A DNA stretch of 41,955 nucleotides from a virus. The translations under genes and the position numbers were made by a program. Positions 50 to 17,577 of the stretch are shown piece by piece; the stretch's first letter is position 1; every line of letters starts with the position of its first letter. The notes beneath the pieces were generated by a model that saw only the letters and a list, made by a program, of their open reading frames with translations, was not told the origin of the DNA and did no database searches. The stretch is from UHGV virus genome UHGV-0070165; one strand, 5' to 3'.

Positions 50-1213
50 TTACGCCTTCTTTATATCCTCCATAATTCCAGAGTGGGACATATTTGGGAC
101 ATTATCACCAAAAATGTCGTCTATTTTCCTCGCATGCTCTGTCAAATGATTAGGCGCAAGGTGAGCATACCTACGAACCATTTCTATGGACTCCCATCCG
201 CCCATTTCCTGAAGCACTGATAATGGGACGCCTGACTGAATCAGCCAGCTTGCCCAGGTGTGTCTGAGGTCATGGAAACGGAAATCTTCAATTCCTGCAC
301 GACGACAAGCTGATAGCCATGATGTCTTGCTGTCGATGCGCATCTTCCTGACCGCAGGCGTTGATGTTCCATCTGCTCGCTTAGCCGCCTTGGTATGTAC
401 AAACACCCATTTGTGATGCTTGCCTATTTGATCACGCAACACTTTACAGGCGGTATCGTTCAGCGCCACACCAATGGCGCGGTTTGATTTGCTCTCTTCT
501 GGATTCACCCAGGCAACTCGTCGCTGCATGTCGATTTGTTGCCATTCCAGATTTATGATGTTCGACTTTCTCAGACCAGTTGCCAGCGCAAACTTGACGA
601 CAGATTTCAGTGGTTCGGGGCACTCATCAATAAGGCGTTTTGCTTCCTCCTTTTCCAGCCATCTGACTCGCTTGTTTCTGACCGCTGGTATCTTGATGAC
701 AGGCGCTTTTTCCAGCCACTTCCAGTCGCGTTCTGCAGCACGGAGAATAGCCTTTATCATGGCAAGATGCTTTGCCTTTGTCTGAGTTGATACTGGCTTT
801 GGTTCATAAACAGGCAGTTCTTTACCTTTCCTGATGGCGGCCTGAACTTTCTGTTTCCATATTTCTTTCGTCTTTCTGTTATGCATTCTGCTTACAGCAG
901 AGTAAATCTTTGCCTCCGAGATATCTTTAAGCCTTATACCCTCAAAATGTTCAAGCCAGAACTCAATCCGGCTTTTATCTGAATCGAGAGATTTTTTATC
1001 AGCTTTTTCCTCAAGCCATCTTAGGCAGGCCTCTTCAAAAGTGACATCAGGTAAATCCCCTAGCTTTTCTACTCGCCAGAGTTCTGCTTTTCGCTTGTCG
1101 TGCAACTCCTGAGCTTGCCGCTTGTCCTTTGTGCCAAGAGATTCCTTAATTCGTTTCCCGCCCGGGAGCGAATACGAGGCATACCATATTTCATTTCTGC
1201 GGAAGAGTGACAT
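50..1213 (-). CDS. int: Phage tyrosine integrase (DLP12 IntD-like)
   Basis: 387 aa ORF; C-terminal catalytic region with R...HDLRHT...Y motifs; positioned next to the tRNA 3' end. Confidence 0.9.
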
Positions 1214-2954: not shown

Positions 2955-3635
2955 TCATCGCCATTGCTCCCCAAATACAAAACCAATTTCAGCCAGTGCC
3001 TCGTCCATTTTTTCGATGAACTCCGGCACCATCTCGTTAAAACTCGCCATGTACTTTTCATCCCGCTCAACCACGACATAATGCAGTCCTTCACGCTTCA
3101 TACGCGGGTCATAGTTGGCAAAGTACCAGGCATCTTTTTGTGTCACCCACATGCTGTACTGCACCTGGGCCATGTAAGCCGATTTTATGGCCTCGAAACC
3201 ACCGAGCCGGAACTTCATGAAATCCCGGGAGGTAAACGGGCATTTCAGTTCAAGGCCGTTGCCGTCACTGCATAAACCATCGGGAGAGCAGGCGGTGCGC
3301 ATACTTTCGTCGCGATAGATGATCGGGGATTCAGTAACATTCACGCCGGAAGTGAACTCAAAGAGGGCTCTGGCGTCGTTCTCGTACTGTTTTCCCCAGG
3401 CCAGCGCCTTAGCGTTAACTTCCGGAGCCACACCGGTGCAAACCTCGGCAAGCAGGGTGTGGAAGTAGGACATTTTCATGTCAGGCCACTTCTTTCCGGA
3501 GCGGGGTTTTGCTATCACATTGTGAACTTCTGAAGCGGTGATGACGCCGAGCCGTAATTTGTGCCATGCATCATCCCCCTGTTCGACAGCTCTCACGTCG
3601 ATCCCGGTACGCTGCAGGATAATGTCCGGTGTCAT
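2955..3635 (-). CDS. exo: Lambda exonuclease (Red alpha)
   Basis: 226 aa; sequence recognised as near-identical to lambda Exo ([36 protein letters not shown]...). Confidence 0.95.
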
Positions 3636-4417
3636 GCTGCCACCTTCTGCTCAGTGGCTTTCTGTTTCAGGAATCCAAGAGCTTTCACTGCTTCGGCCTG
3701 TGTCAGTTCTGACGATGCGCGAATGTCGCGGCGAAATATCTGGGAACAGAGCGGCAATAAGTCGTCATCCCATGTTTTATCCAGGGCAATCAGCAGAGTG
3801 TTAATCTCCTGCATGGTTTCATCGTTAACCGGAGTGATGTCGCGTTCCGGCTGACGTTCTGCAGTGTATGCGGTATTTTCGACAATGCGCTCGGCTTCAT
3901 CCTTGTCATAGATACCAGCAAATCCGAAGGCCAGACGGGCACACTGAATCATGGCTTTATGCCGTAACATCCGTTTGGGATGCGACTGCCACGGTCCGGT
4001 GATTTCTCTGCCTTCGCGGGTTTTGAATGGTTCGCGGCGGCATTCATCCATCCACTCGGTAACGCAGATCGGATGATTGCGGTCTTTGCGGTAAATCCGG
4101 CATGTGCAGGATTCGTTGTCCTGTTCAAAGTCCATGCCGTCAAACTGCTGGTTTTCGTTGATGATGCGGGACCAGCCATCAACGCCCACCACCGGAACGA
4201 TGCCGTTCTGCTTATCAGGGAAGGCGTAAATTTCTTTCGTCCACGGATTAAGACCGTACTGGTTGGCGACGATCAGCAATGCGATGAACTGCGCATCGCT
4301 GGCATCACCTTTAAATGCCGTCTGGCGAAGAGTGGTGATCAGTTCCTGTGGGTCGACAGAATCCATGCCGACTCGTTCAGCCAGCTTCCCAGCCAGCGTT
4401 GCGAGTGCTGTACTCAT
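3632..4417 (-). CDS. bet: Lambda Beta single-strand annealing protein (Red beta)
   Basis: 261 aa; recognised as near-identical to lambda Bet; overlaps exo start by 4 nt. Confidence 0.95.
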
Positions 4418-4422
4418 CCGTT

Positions 4423-4719
4423 TTATACCTCTGAATCAATATCAACCTGGTGGTGAGCAATGGTTTCAACCATGTACCGGATGTGTTCCGCCATGCGCTC
4501 CTGAAACTCAACATCGTCATCAAATGCACGGGTAATGGCTTTTTTGCTGGCCCCGTGGCGTTGCAAATGATCGATGCATAGCGATTCAAACAGGTGCTGG
4601 GGCAGGCCTTTTTCCATGTCGTCTGCCAGTTCTGCCTCTTTCTCTTCACGGGCGATCTGCTGGTAGTGACGCGCCCAGCTCTGAGCCTCAAGACGATCCT
4701 GAATGTAATAAGCGTTCAT
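4423..4719 (-). CDS. gam: Gam, RecBCD inhibitor (98 aa GamS form)
   Basis: Sequence [21 protein letters not shown]... matches lambda GamS; in-frame stop codons lie upstream of the ATG. Confidence 0.9.
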
Positions 4720-4794
4720 GGCTGAACTCCTGAAAATGGCTGTGAAAATATCGCCCGCGAAATGCCGGGCTGATTAGGAAAACAGGAAAGGGGA

Positions 4795-5001
4795 TTAGTG
4801 ATTGAGGCCGTTACCGCGTCCGTCGAGAAAAACTTCCACGAGCAAATCACGGGTATAAGTGCGCTCGATGCCGCGATGCAGATAAAGCCGTCCGCGTAAA
4901 TTAGCTGATGCAGTCCAGGTACCATCTTTGTGTTTGACCAGCATGCCTGGCATGACCGCACCGCGATTAACGGTCTGCGTTCCGTAATGTTGATGAACCA
5001 T
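4795..5001 (-). CDS. Small hypothetical protein (68 aa) at the kil position; the longer tracked ORF begins with TTG and is probably not real
   Basis: ATG preceded by AGGAG at about 5 nt spacing; first gene downstream of the putative leftward promoter. Confidence 0.4.
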
Positions 5002-5278
5002 AAAAACTCCTGCCCGTAAGCTGGGCTGCTGAACATATAGAGACTTCTGCGCGTATTCAGGCGGTGGATGGCCGCCGGTTGTCATAACTAAGCCGCCTCG
5101 TTGAAGCGACTGAGGTATAAAGTGTTGTGTTGATTTCAGCTGGTCACACCGACGTTCACGCGTCCGTTTCACCCCTCGCACTCCCCGAAGCCTGCTGAAA
5201 TTCAAACTGCGGATCTAAGCGGTCATCGCAACGGTGAAACAGGTGGTTATCGTATCGTTGTGTCGTTGCGATGAATTT

Positions 5279-5352
5279 ATTTAAAACTATAGTTGTTTTA
5301 TCGTCAACAACAAAAGTTGTTTTATCGGTTGTTTTTAATATAACTGGTTGTA
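5279..5352 (-). promoter_or_regulatory. Putative leftward early promoter (pL-like) with operator repeats
   Basis: Minus strand reads TTGTTGTTGACG-17 nt-TTAAAT, closely resembling the rightward promoter TGGTTGTTGACT-17 nt-TAATCT; GTTGTT/AACAAC half-sites repeated, including the near-direct repeat AGTTGTTTTATCG at 5291-5304 and 5315-5328. Confidence 0.55.
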
Positions 5353-5442
5353 TTTAGGATGGATTTATTTTGTGACTTGCATCGCATAGCGATAACTGAA
5401 GTGAGGTGTGGTGGTTTTTTGGACGGTATGAGTTATGAGGGG

Positions 5443-5474
5443 GAGGAAAAGAAAACCCGGCGCGGTTGCCGGGT
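5443..5474 (-). terminator. Rho-independent terminator downstream of the lipoprotein gene
   Basis: On the minus strand, hairpin ACCCGGC-loop-GCCGGGT followed by TTTTCTTTTCC. Confidence 0.6.
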
Positions 5475-5481
5475 ATGATTA

Positions 5482-5862
5482 TCAGTCAGCCCAACCTGAT
5501 TTCGAGTTTATTTGGGTTTCTGACATTGTGTATTTCTTAATCGTGTCATCGTTAAAAAGAATAGTAAGTTCTTTTTTCGTACCGTTCGTTCCATTATGGA
5601 ATAATCCATAGAATGGAATAAAAGTGGTGCCATTCACTTTTACTTTTGCAAAGGCGTACTTCCAGATCTCGTTTCCACTGTCAGTATATGAAACAGCATC
5701 AGGAGAACCAAAGTAAGATTTAACCTCATTCTTGGTTGTTTTACCTTCCTGAAGTTTAGACTGGACACTAATTTCAGTTTCATTTTTGAGTTGCTGGTTG
5801 CCTGAAGAAGCACACCCAGCCAATACAGATGCCATCATGGCAGCGATTAGGATTTTTCTCAT
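5482..5862 (-). CDS. Predicted lipoprotein (signal peptide with LAGC lipobox)
   Basis: N-terminus MRKILIAAMMASVLAGC; TATAAT-like box about 20 nt upstream; own terminator downstream; lies downstream of cI where lambda carries rexAB. Confidence 0.7.
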   Translation of the reverse strand: MRKILIAAMMASVLAGCASSGNQQLKNETEISVQSKLQEGKTTKNEVKSYFGSPDAVSYTDSGNEIWKYAFAKVKVNGTTFIPFYGLFHNGTNGTKKELTILFNDDTIKKYTMSETQINSKSGWAD

Positions 5863-6091
5863 TTTATGTTTCCATTCATTATAATCAGAAACATCTTAAC
5901 ATAATGATTCGAAATAAAAACCGCTACGAGATAGGGGGACATTTTGCTGACAGTAGCAACAAATCTCAGCTAACAACGAGAATATTTACTGAAATATGCA
6001 AACAGATTTGGCGTTCTTATAGAGAATTTAGTGCAATATCTAATCCGAGTGGTATAAACCTTAACCTTCGCTCCCTTAAGTCGTAGATAAA

Positions 6092-6781
6092 TTAACCATG
6101 CTTCCTGTACGTCTGCGGCATGCTTCCAATGACCTTACCGAATATGAACACCCGGTTCATCTCGTCTTTCTCGATCGGGTCCCACGGCGAGTAGCTCTTG
6201 TTATCAGAGATAACCAGCAGCTTATCCTTCATCATTTGAAGACGTTTTACATGGGCAGTGTCGTCGTACAGAAACGCATAGATGCCATCACCGTCGAAAG
6301 ATTTAACAGTGATATCAACGAACAGCAGGTCACCTGGTTCGATCGTCCCTGACATGCTGTCACCTCGCACGTTAATGATGCGGATATTTTCCGCCTTCCT
6401 GCCATCGAACATGTGACGAGCATCGTCAAACGAGTACTCAACCGAGCGTAGAACTTCTACAAACTCACGGTTGATTACACCTGGCCCGGCACTGACTTCT
6501 ATATCAAGAACGTCAATTTTGAAGTATTTGGAATGGCTGACAGTTGATTGTATTGGTTGCACTGTACTGTCTGACATATTTCCAACGCCAGAAGATAACC
6601 ATTCTGCGCGTACACCCAAAGCGTTCGCGATCTCCACGATTTTAGTTGTTTGGTTAGCTTTCCCTGTTTCGATTTTCTGAATAGCAGCCTGGCTAACCCC
6701 GACCAAATCCCCAAGCGCCTTTTGTGTAAGGCCTCGCGCTAATCTGGCTTCTTTAAGTCTTTCTGAGAGTGTTGTTTTCAT
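6092..6781 (-). CDS. cI: CI-type prophage repressor (N-terminal HTH, C-terminal LexA-like S24 autopeptidase)
   Basis: 229 aa; HTH near LTQKALGDLVGVSQAAIQKIE; Ala-Gly cleavage site (SAGPG); Ser (GDSM) and Lys (VKRL) catalytic dyad motifs; divergent from cro. Confidence 0.85.
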   Translation of the reverse strand: MKTTLSERLKEARLARGLTQKALGDLVGVSQAAIQKIETGKANQTTKIVEIANALGVRAEWLSSGVGNMSDSTVQPIQSTVSHSKYFKIDVLDIEVSAGPGVINREFVEVLRSVEYSFDDARHMFDGRKAENIRIINVRGDSMSGTIEPGDLLFVDITVKSFDGDGIYAFLYDDTAHVKRLQMMKDKLLVISDNKSYSPWDPIEKDEMNRVFIFGKVIGSMPQTYRKHG

Positions 6782-6822
6782 AGATCAAATGTACAACCAA
6801 GGTTTTATTTCATCAAACGAAA

Positions 6823-6858
6823 ATGGTTGTTGACTAAAAACAACCATAGTTTTAATCT
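6823..6858 (+). promoter_or_regulatory. Rightward promoter (pR-like) with overlapping operator palindrome
   Basis: ATGGTTGTT-GACTAAA-AACAACCAT is a perfect 9 bp inverted repeat overlapping TTGACT (-35); TAATCT lies 17 nt downstream; sits between cI and cro. Confidence 0.6.
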
Positions 6859-6885
6859 TGATTCGGATTAACCGCGGAGGTTGTT

Positions 6886-7116
6886 ATGAACCCAGCAATC
6901 AAAACAGCGATCAATATCGTTGGTTCACAAAAGAAACTAGGCGATGCCTGCGAAGTTTCACAGCAGGCCGTCTATAAGTGGCTTCACAACAAAGCAAAGG
7001 TATCCCCTGAACATGTCGGCAGCATTGTTACGGCTACTGGTGGAGTTGTGAAGGCATACCAGATTCGCCCGGATCTTCCGAAGTTGTTTCCACACACCGA
7101 AAAGAACGCAGCTTAA
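6886..7116 (+). CDS. cro: Cro-like HTH repressor
   Basis: 76 aa; GGAGG Shine-Dalgarno; HTH (QKKLGDACEVSQQAVYKW); transcribed divergently from cI. Confidence 0.8.
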   Translation: MNPAIKTAINIVGSQKKLGDACEVSQQAVYKWLHNKAKVSPEHVGSIVTATGGVVKAYQIRPDLPKLFPHTEKNAA

Positions 7117-7128
7117 ATTTCCATTTCA

Positions 7129-7141
7129 CGCTCTTTAACAA
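7129..7141 (+). promoter_or_regulatory. boxA-like element (rrn-type consensus) at the nutR position
   Basis: CGCTCTTTAACAA, 12 nt after the cro stop, matches the recalled rrn/lambdoid boxA consensus GCTCTTTAACAA; no obvious boxB hairpin follows. Confidence 0.45.
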
Positions 7142-7185
7142 TAAGCAATCAACTTAACAGTCAATTCAAACTAAAGGAGTCAATT

Positions 7186-7725
7186 ATGCAACCACTTACA
7201 TACCAACAGACTAGCGAATTTATTCCGACTGCGGTGATAAATCGTTCTCAAACAAAACAAGCTCCAGGCCACGAAAAAATCCGTGATGCCGTCCGCGCCT
7301 GGTCGGCTGTAGATAATCAGGATGTCGTTGCCGCACTCATTGTGAATGAGTATCGGGAGCAGGGCGACGGCACCATCGATTTCCCTGATGATGTCAGCCG
7401 TGCACGCCAGAAGCTGTTCCGCTTCCTCGATAACAAATTCGATTCTGAAAAATACCGAAATAACGTGCGTGAACTGACCCCGGCAATTCTGGCGGTACTA
7501 CCGCTGGAATATCGCGGTTACCTGGTTGAGCTGGATAGCTTCATGACTCGGTTGGCTGAAATGGAAAAGGAACTCAGTGAGGCAAAACAGGCTGTCATTC
7601 TCAACGCACCACGCCACCAGAAACTGAAGGAAATGAGTGAAGGTATTGTGTCGATGTTTCGTGTGGACCCGGATCTGGCTGGTCCATTAATGGCGATGGT
7701 GACCACCATGCTGGGGGCAATATGA
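7186..7725 (+). CDS. YdaT-like protein occupying the cII position
   Basis: 179 aa; AAGGAG Shine-Dalgarno; segment ELTPAILAVLPLEYRGYL resembles the Rac prophage YdaT family as recalled. Confidence 0.5.
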   Translation: MQPLTYQQTSEFIPTAVINRSQTKQAPGHEKIRDAVRAWSAVDNQDVVAALIVNEYREQGDGTIDFPDDVSRARQKLFRFLDNKFDSEKYRNNVRELTPAILAVLPLEYRGYLVELDSFMTRLAEMEKELSEAKQAVILNAPRHQKLKEMSEGIVSMFRVDPDLAGPLMAMVTTMLGAI

Positions 7726-7811
7726 CAGGTTCAGAAATGGCGAAAGTCGGTCTGCGGGAACAGAACCGACTTTCAGGTGCAAATCGTAACACACTCATTG
7801 CGGGAGGAATT

Positions 7812-8741
7812 ATGGCAAACACTGCTGAGATATTCAATTTTCCAGTGCCGGATGCGGCACAAAAGGAGCCGCGCGTGGCAGATCTCGATGATGGTTATAC
7901 GCGCATTGCAAATGAGTTGCTGGAAGCTGTGATGCTGGCCGGATTAACACAGCACCAGCTTCTGGTCTTCCTGGCTGTCATGCGCAAAACATATGGCTTT
8001 AATAAAAGACTGGATTGGGTGAGCAACGAGCAACTTTCCGAATTGACCGGGATATTGCCGCACAAGTGTTCTGCTGCAAAAAGCGTTCTGGTAAAGCGTG
8101 GGATTCTTATTCAGAGCGGGCGAAATATCGGCATTAATAATGTGGTCAGTGAATGGTCAACATTACCCGAATCAGGTAAGAAAAATAAAGTTTACCTGAA
8201 AGAGGTAAATTTACCTGAATCAGGTAAGAAAAGTTTACCCAAATCAGGTAAAGGCGTTTACCCGAATCAGGTAAACACAAAAGACAAACTAACAAAAGAC
8301 AATATAAAACCTTTTTCGTCCGAGAATTCTGGCGAATCCTCTGACCAGCCAGAAAACGACCTTCCTGTGGTGAAACCGGATGCTGCAATTCAGAGTGGCA
8401 GCAAGTGGGGGACAGCAGAAGACCTGACCGCCGCAGAGTGGATGTTTGACATGGTGAAGACCATCGCGCCATCAGCCAGAAAACCGAATTTTGCAGGGTG
8501 GGCTAACGATATCCGCCTGATGCGTGAACGTGACGGACGTAACCACCGCGACATGTGCGTGCTGTTCCGCTGGGCATGCCAGGACAACTTCTGGTCCGGT
8601 AACGTGCTGAGTCCGGCCAAACTCCGCGACAAGTGGACCCAGCTCGAAATCAACCGAAACAAGCAACAGGCTGGCGTGACAGCCGGCAAACCAAAACTCG
8701 ACCTGACGAACACTGACTGGATTTACGGGGTGGATTTATGA
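7812..8741 (+). CDS. O: Replication initiator O (lambda O-like); start set at MANTAEIF with GGGAGGA Shine-Dalgarno
   Basis: N-terminal and C-terminal regions recognisably lambda O-like (…NFAGWANDIRLMRERDGRNHRDMCVLFRWACQDNFW…); central region carries the iterons. Confidence 0.9.
   Translation: MANTAEIFNFPVPDAAQKEPRVADLDDGYTRIANELLEAVMLAGLTQHQLLVFLAVMRKTYGFNKRLDWVSNEQLSELTGILPHKCSAAKSVLVKRGILIQSGRNIGINNVVSEWSTLPESGKKNKVYLKEVNLPESGKKSLPKSGKGVYPNQVNTKDKLTKDNIKPFSSENSGESSDQPENDLPVVKPDAAIQSGSKWGTAEDLTAAEWMFDMVKTIAPSARKPNFAGWANDIRLMRERDGRNHRDMCVLFRWACQDNFWSGNVLSPAKLRDKWTQLEINRNKQQAGVTAGKPKLDLTNTDWIYGVDL
8163..8311. repeat. Replication origin: five roughly 19 bp iterons plus an AT-rich tract inside O
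   Basis: Five tandem copies of TTACC-(N7-9)-GGTAA (e.g. TTTACCTGAATCAGGTAAG), followed by CACAAAAGACAAACTAACAAAAGACAATATAAAA. Confidence 0.75.
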
Positions 8742-9439
8742 AAAACATCGCCGCACAGATGGTTAACTTTGACCGTGAGCAGATGCGCCGGATCGCCAAC
8801 AATATGCCGGAACAGTACGACGAAAAGCCGCAGGTACAGCAGGTAGCGCAGATCATCAACGGTGTGTTCAGCCAGTTACTGGCAACTTTCCCGGCGAGCC
8901 TGGCTAACCGTGACCAGAATGAACTGAACGAAATCCGCCGCCAGTGGGTTCTGGCTTTCCGGGAAAACGGGATCACCACAATGGAACAGGTTAACGCTGG
9001 AATGCGCGTAGCCCGTCGGCAGAATCGACCATTCCTGCCATCACCCGGGCAGTTTGTCGCCTGGTGCCGGGAAGAAGCATCTGTTAACGCCGGGCTGCCA
9101 AACGTCAGCGAGCTGGTTGATATGGTTTACGAGTATTGCCGGAAGCGTGGCCTGTATCCGGATGCAGAGTCTTATCCGTGGAAATCGAACGCGCATTACT
9201 GGTTGGTTACCAACTTGTACCAGAACATGCGGGCCAATGCGCTGGCTGACGCGGAATTACGGCGCAAGGCTGCCGATGAACTGACCTGTATGACAGCGCG
9301 AATTAACCGTGGTGAGACGATACCTGAACCAGTAAAACAACTTCCTGTTATGGGCGGTAGACCTCTAAATCGTGCACAGGCTCTGGCGAAGATCGCAGAA
9401 ATTAAAGCTAAGTTCGGACTGAAAGGAGCAAGTGTATGA
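8738..9439 (+). CDS. P: Replication protein P (DnaB helicase loader)
   Basis: 233 aa; recognised as near-identical to lambda P. Confidence 0.95.
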   Translation: MKNIAAQMVNFDREQMRRIANNMPEQYDEKPQVQQVAQIINGVFSQLLATFPASLANRDQNELNEIRRQWVLAFRENGITTMEQVNAGMRVARRQNRPFLPSPGQFVAWCREEASVNAGLPNVSELVDMVYEYCRKRGLYPDAESYPWKSNAHYWLVTNLYQNMRANALADAELRRKAADELTCMTARINRGETIPEPVKQLPVMGGRPLNRAQALAKIAEIKAKFGLKGASV

Positions 9440-9738
9440 CGGGCAAAGAGGCAATTATTCATTACCTGGGGACGCATAAGAGCTTCTGTGCACAGGACGT
9501 TGCCGCGGTAACAGGCGCAACCGTAACCAGCATAAATCAGGCTGCGGCTAAAATGGCGCGGGCAGGAATCCTGGTCGTTGATGGTAAGGTCTGGCGAACG
9601 GTGTATTACCGGTTCGCTACCAGAGAAGAACGGGAAGGAAAGGTGAGCACGAATCTGATTTTTAAGGAGTGTCGCCAGAGTGCCGCGATGAAACGGGTAT
9701 TGAGGGTATATAAAAGAACATCAATGGGAACACAATGA
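9436..9738 (+). CDS. ren: Ren protein
   Basis: Sequence MTGKEAIIHYLGTH...KVWRTVYYRFATREERE recognised as lambda Ren-like. Confidence 0.85.
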   Translation: MTGKEAIIHYLGTHKSFCAQDVAAVTGATVTSINQAAAKMARAGILVVDGKVWRTVYYRFATREEREGKVSTNLIFKECRQSAAMKRVLRVYKRTSMGTQ

Positions 9739-13742: not shown

Positions 13743-13956
13743 AAGTGTTTTAAGAAGGAGCAATTCTATCGATTTTGATTTTGGGAAATCAACACGGCAT
13801 AATTATGTCACCGGAGCCTGAACAACTCCGGTGACTTCTGCGCTAAACGGGGACGTTTATGCGCACATACAATCCAAACTCTCTTCTCCCTTCACAGATG
13901 CAGAAATGCACCTGCAATTCTTTGCATCTAGCGTTTGACCTCTGCGGAGGGGAAGC

Positions 13957-15446: not shown

Positions 15447-15830
15447 ATGCGTGATATTCAGATGGTTCTTGAGCGTTGGGGAGCGTGGGCGGCTAATAAT
15501 CATGAAGATGTGACCTAGTCGTCCATTGCCGCCGGTTTTAAGGGATTAATTCCTTCAAAAGTAAAATCTCGCCCGCAATGTTGTGACGATGACGCGATGA
15601 TCATTTGCGGGTGCATGGCCCGTCTGAAAAAGAACAACAGCGATTTGCACGATTTATTAGTAGATTATTATGTAGTCGGTATGACATTCATGTCACTGGC
15701 AGGTAAGCATTGCTGCTCTGATGGTTATATCGGGAAAAGGTTACAAAAGGCTGAGGGCATAATTGAAGGGATGTTAATGGCATTAGATATCCGGTTAGAG
15801 ATGGATATCGTTGTTAATAACTCTAATTAA
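15447..15830 (+). pseudogene. quuD: Late antiterminator Q (QuuD-like) interrupted by an in-frame TAG at codon 24 (15516-15518)
   Basis: ATG at 15447 with GGAG Shine-Dalgarno; 23 codons (MRDIQMVLERWGAWAANNHEDVT) then TAG; the same frame continues without further stops to 15830, a 127-codon frame; Cys-rich zinc-binding region downstream. Confidence 0.7.
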
Positions 15831-17544: not shown

Positions 17545-17577
17545 AAACCCGCCGTCGAGCGGGTTTTTCCATTTTTT
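17545..17577 (+). terminator. Rho-independent terminator upstream of the lysis cassette
   Basis: Hairpin AAACCCGC-CGTCGA-GCGGGTTT followed by TTCCATTTTTT. Confidence 0.55.

Follow-up and report, generated by a model that had tools for sequence, protein, structure and literature searches.

Early antitermination in lambdoid phages is taught as the N/nut system, with the put RNA of phage HK022 as the single exception. A nut site consists of boxA and boxB and is read by N together with NusA, NusB, S10 and NusG; the putR element of HK022 acts as RNA on RNA polymerase, modifying it with neither N nor Nus factors. In lambda, P22 and phage 21, nutR occupies the first untranslated nucleotides after cro in the PR transcript, in a C-rich, rut-like context. 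The boxA of phage 21 is identical to the boxA of rRNA (rrn) operons (PMC3177189), which means that a nut site with an rrn-type boxA is not unusual by itself. In lambda, the G2U substitution in boxA abolishes NusB-S10 binding and N function (PMC3177189). BoxA alone suffices in rrn operons and CRISPR leaders (PMC7665894, PMC5725501), where it recruits Nus factors and blocks Rho (PMC7665894, PMC4807359, PMC6614797). At the BoxA in the 5'-UTR of suhB, the complete Nus complex represses translation, which is followed by Rho termination (PMC5725501); the functional boxA consensus derived in that study is GYTCTTTAANA. Thus, BoxA-only regulation, nut sites and an rrn-type boxA within a nut site are all known already.

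The DNA analyzed here is virus genome UHGV-0070165, a lambdoid prophage of E. coli; its full length of 41,955 nt is referred to as the window (Table 1). It carries a DLP12-like accessory set comprising emrE, ybcK, ybcL, ybcM, ybcN, rusA, quuD and a porin. The lipoprotein moron encodes a signal peptide and a weak BamE-like domain (PHROG 3135), is followed by a strong intrinsic terminator (5455-5474) and is absent from several otherwise identical phages. The gene for the Q-type late antiterminator (quuD homologue, 15447-15830) contains an in-frame stop codon at 15516-15518, a position at which QuuD of DLP12 presumably has W. Judged from this stop, the window prophage is probably defective for late gene expression, and because of the nonsense codon this copy may be outside phage-level selection.

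Table 1. Coordinates of the features discussed, in positions of the window.
Feature	Position	Strand	Basis or remark
int	50-1213	-	
exo, bet, gam, kil	2955-5001	-	
OL operators and PL (-35 TTGACG, 5307-5302)	5279-5345	-	
Lipoprotein moron with its own terminator	about 5445/5482-5862	-	between cI and PL
cI-type repressor (HTH and S24 peptidase)	6092-6781	-	
OR operators (ACAACC-type) and PR (-35 TTGACT, 6830-6835)	6782-6885	.	direct reading; similarity to PL
cro (YdaS-type helix-turn-helix protein, 76 aa)	6886-7116	+	
cro-ydaT spacer	7117-7185	+	69 nt, untranslated, unstructured, 15 C vs 6 G
boxA CGCTCTTTAACAA	7129-7141	+	direct reading; homologous boxA in relatives; consensus of PMC5725501
Deletion scar	7154-7162	+	TTAACAG 7154-7160; CAGTC 7158-7162, surviving right arm of GACUG-AUUAA-CAGUC
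Shine-Dalgarno AGGAG (7175-7179) and ydaT ATG (7186)	7175-7188	+	direct reading
ydaT (CII-equivalent regulator)	7186-7725	+	PMC9986795
O	7722-8741	+	
P	8738-9439	+	
ren	9436-9738	+	

The sequence-only reading had placed an rrn-type boxA at the nutR position of this phage, 12 nt after cro. This placement is borne out. The motif CGCTCTTTAACAA (7129-7141) is separated by 12 nt from the cro stop codon (TAA, 7114-7116), and the order of cro stop, short gap and boxA is the same as in P22 and lambda, where boxA keeps an equal distance from cro. Its 12-mer GCTCTTTAACAA (7130-7141) is the E. coli rrn boxA core with no differences, and its core GCTCTTTAACA (7130-7140) fits the functional consensus GYTCTTTAANA (PMC5725501). 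The 12-mer occurs once in the window, counting both strands, and was contained in none of 100 dinucleotide-preserving shuffles. Matches with up to two mismatches were found in the window at chance level, and only the exact copy is therefore meaningful. The motif lies within the PR transcript, ~270 nt from the promoter and 45 nt upstream of the ydaT ATG.

The RNA around the motif is largely unpaired. The segment 7110-7200 folded to only -4.1 kcal/mol (z = +0.41) with an unpaired centroid, and no boxB hairpin was detected by RNA folding in the 69-nt spacer, in agreement with the earlier impression that boxB is missing. By comparison, the cro-cII spacer of lambda folds to -24.5 kcal/mol and that of P22 to -17.0 kcal/mol, with clear boxB hairpins directly 3' of boxA. 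The 3' end of cro and the spacer together provide the top four C/G windows of 78 nt in the whole early-right operon, with 19-21 C vs 6-8 G. By composition the spacer is rut-like, and it lies at the position of lambda tR1, where lambda has the rutA-boxB-rutB arrangement. We found no strong or convincing intrinsic terminator on the + strand between PR and Q; the first strong one (17545-17566) is the late-operon terminator. Rho is thus the only obvious obstacle to transcription of the early-right operon. A 9-nt inverted repeat, AAGTTGTTT at 7081-7089 and AATCAACTT at 7147-7155 (89% complementary), would enclose boxA in a 57-nt loop; the repeat is AU-rich and probably a chance match. At gathering thresholds, Rfam returned no family match for the whole window; over 4900-7400, nothing meaningful appeared at E <= 5.

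Lambda-type nut sites combine a boxA of the form CGCTCTT(T)A with a boxB stem-loop ~10-25 nt 3' of it, a promoter-proximal gene in the PL operon for a cognate N with an arginine-rich motif, and a nutL partner in the PL leader that repeats boxA and boxB. This phage has the boxA and none of the other three. No N-type ORF was recognized in the window by Pfam or PHROG, and tblastn with lambda N and four N proteins from relatives gave no match below E = 0.09 and none near PL, so that the statement of the sequence-only reading that no N gene is apparent stands. N annotation is likewise absent from the near-identical phage PhiR26_1 and from phage 4A7. An arginine-rich frame upstream of kil (VKRTRERRCDQL, 5172-5137) resembles an arginine-rich motif and was considered as a hidden N. 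It was rejected: variable sites are distributed 16/11/12 over its codon positions, compared to 6/6/18 in kil, it contains indels, a stop codon interrupts it in 45 of the 139 related sequences compared, and it has no Pfam or PHROG match. The frame is under no coding constraint. An N of the phi80 type was also rejected, as tblastn found none in the window or in 12 related loci, despite the widespread phi80-type PL leader. A second boxA that could mark nutL was not found in the whole window at up to one mismatch, and there is none on the PL side; boxA, boxB and N are all absent from the PL leader (5275-5002, - strand).

The slot after cro is also that of putR in HK022, which, like this phage, is lambdoid and lacks N. 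However, the window resembles put neither in sequence nor in structure. The HK022 early region showed no similarity to the PL leader or the PR operon of the window, and the two-stem-loop put RNA of HK022 was not found there. The fold of the PL leader is not unusually stable (z = -0.72), and the right operon contains no paralogue of it. With the spacer unstructured as well, a put-like RNA was rejected. The PL leader (5002-5275, - strand) measures ~270 nt, shows no coding signature and is 96% identical to the leader of 4A7-type phages despite different immunity.

For comparison with relatives, Cro homologues were gathered from species-representative genomes and IMG/VR without regard to boxA. Cro and its downstream sequence occurred in 61 distinct combinations, 45 of which have a boxA within 70 nt after the cro stop. 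The post-cro slot falls into five states: a classical nut site, an HK022-like putR, boxA with a palindrome, boxA only, and nothing. The classical state is found in Xenorhabdus, Photorhabdus, Arsenophonus, Buttiauxella, Erwinia and Rosenbergiella. Here boxA is followed by boxB, and a matching boxA-boxB pair on the leftward strand precedes an N ORF with an arginine-rich N-terminus. In six loci (L137-L142) with a Cro ~86% identical to that of the window, a near-identical HK022 putR lies ~15-100 nt after cro; N/nut, put and boxA-only elements are therefore interchangeable cassettes at this slot. In the palindrome state, boxA is followed after ~20 nt by GGCTGA-N4-TCAGCC. A pattern scan detected this unit in 53 IMG/VR contigs (L340-L392), with a single copy in each, and it is also carried by L135, L136, L148, L152, L153 and L157. 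The stem is fixed and the loop is free (GAAA, GGAA, ATTA, TTCG, GTAA and others); the unit may be an RNA hairpin or a DNA palindrome. The unit stands behind at least six unrelated cro families and always 30-60 nt before cII or ydaT. Neither an N-like ORF nor a matching PL-side hairpin was seen in the three such loci inspected in depth (L262, L264 and L304). The boxA-only state comprises the window and its E. coli relatives. In the last state, represented by L003, L004, L005, L009 and the 4A7-type E. coli phages, only 30-40 nt separate cro from the next gene. Phage 4A7 and its relatives have the same ydaT-O-P operon, another cro and a 30-nt gap without boxA, and are viable. The element is thus dispensable and has been lost repeatedly.

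Related prophages therefore conserve the motif, on which the sequence-only reading had made its proposal depend, and canonical N and boxB were found solely in more distant relatives of other genera, not in this phage. The palindrome state is linked to the boxA-only state by the close relatives L148, L152 and L153, in which a Cro 86% identical to that of the window is followed by boxA, GGCTGA-N4-TCAGCC and ydaT in this order. Alignment A2 is best conserved over the boxA block, while the stretch from the cro stop to boxA is unalignable between lineages. On this comparative evidence, the window boxA is homologous to that of the unit of boxA, ~20 nt and hairpin in many Enterobacterales lambdoid prophages. 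Relatives that still carry boxB and N show, moreover, that the window site descends from nut sites.

Loss of the hairpin can be followed within E. coli. A minority allele, with the sequence CTTAACAG ACTGATTAACAG TCAATT, retains a weak version of the hairpin, GACUG-AUUAA-CAGUC (-5.7 kcal/mol). Relative to this allele, the window is shorter by exactly 12 nt, namely the ACTGATTAACAG segment between two TTAACAG repeats. A 12-nt deletion between these repeats, with the signature of slippage, accounts for the removal of one hairpin arm. Note that the hairpin stem is invariant outside E. coli and that the E. coli allele is not in register with it in the alignment. Both boxA variants that we found are confined to the minority allele. 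C to T at 7131 (lineage L036) yields GTTCTTTAACA, which is exactly the functional suhB boxA, and G to T at 7130, in one lineage, is of the G2U class; in L043 the hairpin stem is disrupted. The motif is thus a genuine nutR-derived boxA, orphaned within what was once a nut-like site.

Among 5426 complete E. coli genomes, 1515 carry the 101-nt segment 7100-7200, and 1461 of these carriers match it with at least 99% identity over 101 nt. Another 47 carriers fall into the 80-90% identity band, as expected of the 12-nt longer allele; two genomes sampled from this band align over 113 nt vs 101 nt. The identical site is found in the plaque-forming phage PhiR26_1, whose record lists E. coli K-12 MG1655 as its host. 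In exchanges with other cro modules, the junction falls exactly at the ydaT ATG, which indicates that the spacer travels with cro.

Sequence variation was analyzed in 83 loci (64 haplotypes), of which 76 are hairpin-less. Across the 83 loci, nucleotide diversity was 0.005 in the spacer, compared to 0.035 at third positions of cro, 0.048 at third positions of ydaT and 0.029 in the operator region, making the spacer 6-9 times less diverse than adjacent synonymous sites. Among hairpin-less loci, 3 of 69 spacer sites segregated, all as singletons, versus 52 of 255 flanking third codon positions (Fisher p = 9e-4); counting non-singleton sites, the values were 0 of 69 and 40 of 255 (Fisher p = 5e-5). 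By these measures of variation, the hairpin-less spacer is under purifying selection. The constraint spans the whole spacer, and boxA (0 of 13 sites segregating) is no more conserved than the remainder (3 of 56).

These data bear on the possibility that the site is an evolutionary relic, in which N was lost, nutR is decaying, the hairpin was deleted and boxA has not yet been hit, any Nus binding being without selected consequence and the spacer being conserved for other reasons. The series of alleles fits such a course, with a hairpin partner that is degenerate in 47 genomes and deleted in ~1460, as does the tolerance of G to T at 7130 and of the disrupted stem in L043. The whole element is gone in 4A7-type phages, L003, L004, L005 and L009, and the window offers neither a nutL partner nor a strong terminator to overcome. 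However, boxA shows no change in any of the 76 hairpin-less loci, within a spacer of markedly reduced diversity, and it is perfect in several apparently N-less lineages with unalignable 5' flanks. In addition, a perfect rrn boxA in free RNA would be expected to bind NusB-S10 whether selected or not. We regard it as rather doubtful that the site is a mere relic.

Since the constraint is uniform over the spacer, it could be caused by promoter or operator DNA. The spacer would then carry a leftward PRE-equivalent promoter and YdaT operator half-sites, and boxA would be kept by overlap only. In CP-933P, the YdaT operators and a PRE-type promoter under YdaT control lie exactly in the corresponding ydaS-ydaT interval, of which YdaT protects ~95 bp (PMC9986795). 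In the window, an AATCAA half-site (7147-7152) adjoins boxA, and direct repeats of AGTCAATT are found at 7159-7166 and 7178-7185, spaced 19 nt apart. In contrast, a full TTGATTN6AATCAA operator is absent from the spacer, where the best match has 3 mismatches; a YdaT operator was therefore rejected, leaving the half-site only, and no minus-strand promoter-like site was called. Moreover, boxA is kept after cro genes of many unrelated kinds, and the gene that follows it may be cII or ydaT, whose products bind different DNA. Conservation of boxA through such an overlap thus appears very unlikely.

An exact match to the published YdaT operator does occur elsewhere in the window. The sequence TTGATTTTGGGAAATCAA (13775-13792) is situated in the intergenic region that precedes ybcN, where promoter-like hexamers overlap it on both strands. 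Phage 4A7 (L002, 13454-13471) has a site that differs in the N6 spacer only, ~180 nt upstream of ybcN. From its sequence and position, TTGATTTTGGGAAATCAA could mark a promoter of the nin region that is under YdaT control. L102 was considered as a carrier of the published operator and rejected, as the operator is not there.

The distance to ydaT also invites comparison with suhB, whose 5'-UTR likewise has a consensus boxA a few tens of nucleotides upstream of the start codon. By analogy, the Nus complex would repress ydaT translation and Rho would then terminate within ydaT, coupling the level of the CII equivalent, and with it the lysis-lysogeny decision, to the host pool of free Nus factors. 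With its fit to GYTCTTTAANA and a start codon no more than 50 nt away, the boxA shows the combination used as a criterion in PMC5725501. Repression by the suhB boxA persists even when the Shine-Dalgarno sequence lies as far as 100 nt from it (PMC5725501), a range that accommodates the 45 nt from boxA to the ydaT ATG; the spacer is rut-like, and the boxA-hairpin units of relatives keep a fixed range of distances to cII or ydaT. The suhB site differs, however, in being 5'-terminal, whereas the window site is internal to a phage operon. The same geometry serves antitermination in lambda and P22, and polarity on O, P and Q would seem costly to the phage. Furthermore, E. coli E24377A carries the post-cro site, yet the published boxA catalogue (PMC5725501 supplement) lists this strain for suhB only and omits the site. 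We consider control of ydaT in this manner improbable.

In the reading that we favor, the orphan boxA mediates N-independent loading of Nus factors. Each PR transcript would bind NusB-S10 at boxA; together with NusA, NusG and SuhB, NusB-S10 would build an rrn-type complex on RNA polymerase; and the complex, with no phage protein involved, would keep Rho away from the rut-like spacer and from the 8.5-kb early-right operon up to Q. The ydaT start codon lies 45 nt further on, so that the same complex could also adjust translation of the CII equivalent. We infer NusB-S10 binding, the rrn-type complex and Rho resistance because the sequence equals the rrn boxA and because BoxA-only systems have been published. 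The perfect consensus, situated in unstructured, untranslated, C-rich and G-poor RNA within a constrained spacer, fits such loading, and PR transcripts should accordingly bind NusB-S10. The rrn and CRISPR elements offer the closest parallel, with the same 12-nt boxA, no dedicated phage or accessory RNA-binding protein and Rho resistance as the proposed effect. They differ in that they protect long untranslated RNAs, whereas the window boxA lies between two ORFs and the downstream operon is translated. Translation already protects this operon against Rho, which counts against Nus loading. Also against it, the site is the remainder of a boxA-hairpin unit in the comparative series, viable sister phages are without boxA, no strong intrinsic terminator is present, the constraint is not boxA-specific, the PL side has no boxA and the window copy, with its nonsense codon in Q, may have left phage-level selection; a necessary role is further opposed by the repeated loss of the element and by the lineage with the knock-out-type G to T at 7130. 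N-independent, Nus-dependent antitermination, as proposed in the sequence-only reading, is plausible in that it is compatible with the data. That the orphan boxA loads Nus factors independently of N and with a biological effect would, on balance, come close to an even chance without quite reaching it. The wider statement, that a large group of N-less lambdoid phages, one of which resides in ~28% of complete E. coli genomes and whose relatives in other genera have the boxA-palindrome unit, load NusB, S10, NusA, NusG and SuhB on their PR transcripts via boxA, is put forward only tentatively and seems to us somewhat unlikely.

Were this statement true, the phages would use a third early-gene strategy beside N/nut and put RNA, one that needs no phage factor, and the host pool of free Nus factors could set early gene expression or the level of the CII equivalent. 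To our knowledge, a boxA kept as an orphan in the nutR position by a highly prevalent lambdoid family that forms plaques and lacks N is undescribed, as is the boxA-GGCTGA-N4-TCAGCC unit. A search of the literature available to us for both found nothing. The immunity module thus represents a third state, boxA alone, in plaque-forming phages and in more than one quarter of complete E. coli genomes. Should the orphan boxA be functional, BoxA-only Nus regulation, as in rrn operons, suhB and CRISPR leaders, would extend to phage early operons. PhiR26_1, with and without a boxA mutation and with and without the 12-nt hairpin, would then be a simple mutable system for Nus complex action on a translated operon. 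If it is idle, the site would be a dated example of nut decay once N is gone, in a series that runs from N with boxB to hairpin only, weak hairpin, deleted hairpin and deletion of the whole element.

Several further observations concern the PL leaders of the related phages. The PL leader of phage phi80 is annotated as a putative nutL and contains a boxA variant, GCTTTTTAA, and a 'core' hairpin with an A-rich loop. The stem of this hairpin co-varies, being CACG/CGTG in some loci and CGCA/TGCG in others. Leaders of this type, up to 97% identical, are found in many prophages without a phi80 N homologue, including L005 (1463-1730), L304 (6767-7000), L003, L264, L342, L370 and L371 on the leftward strand. 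A perfect GCTCTTTAACA is present in the phi80-type leader of L371 and L377. The PL leader of an Enterobacter prophage (L005, ~1380-1460, - strand) contains a tRNA-like sequence ending in CCA, for which Rfam made no call, and a Buttiauxella prophage (L011, 1804-1875, - strand) carries a tRNA gene between nutL and N (Rfam tRNA, 45.6 bits).
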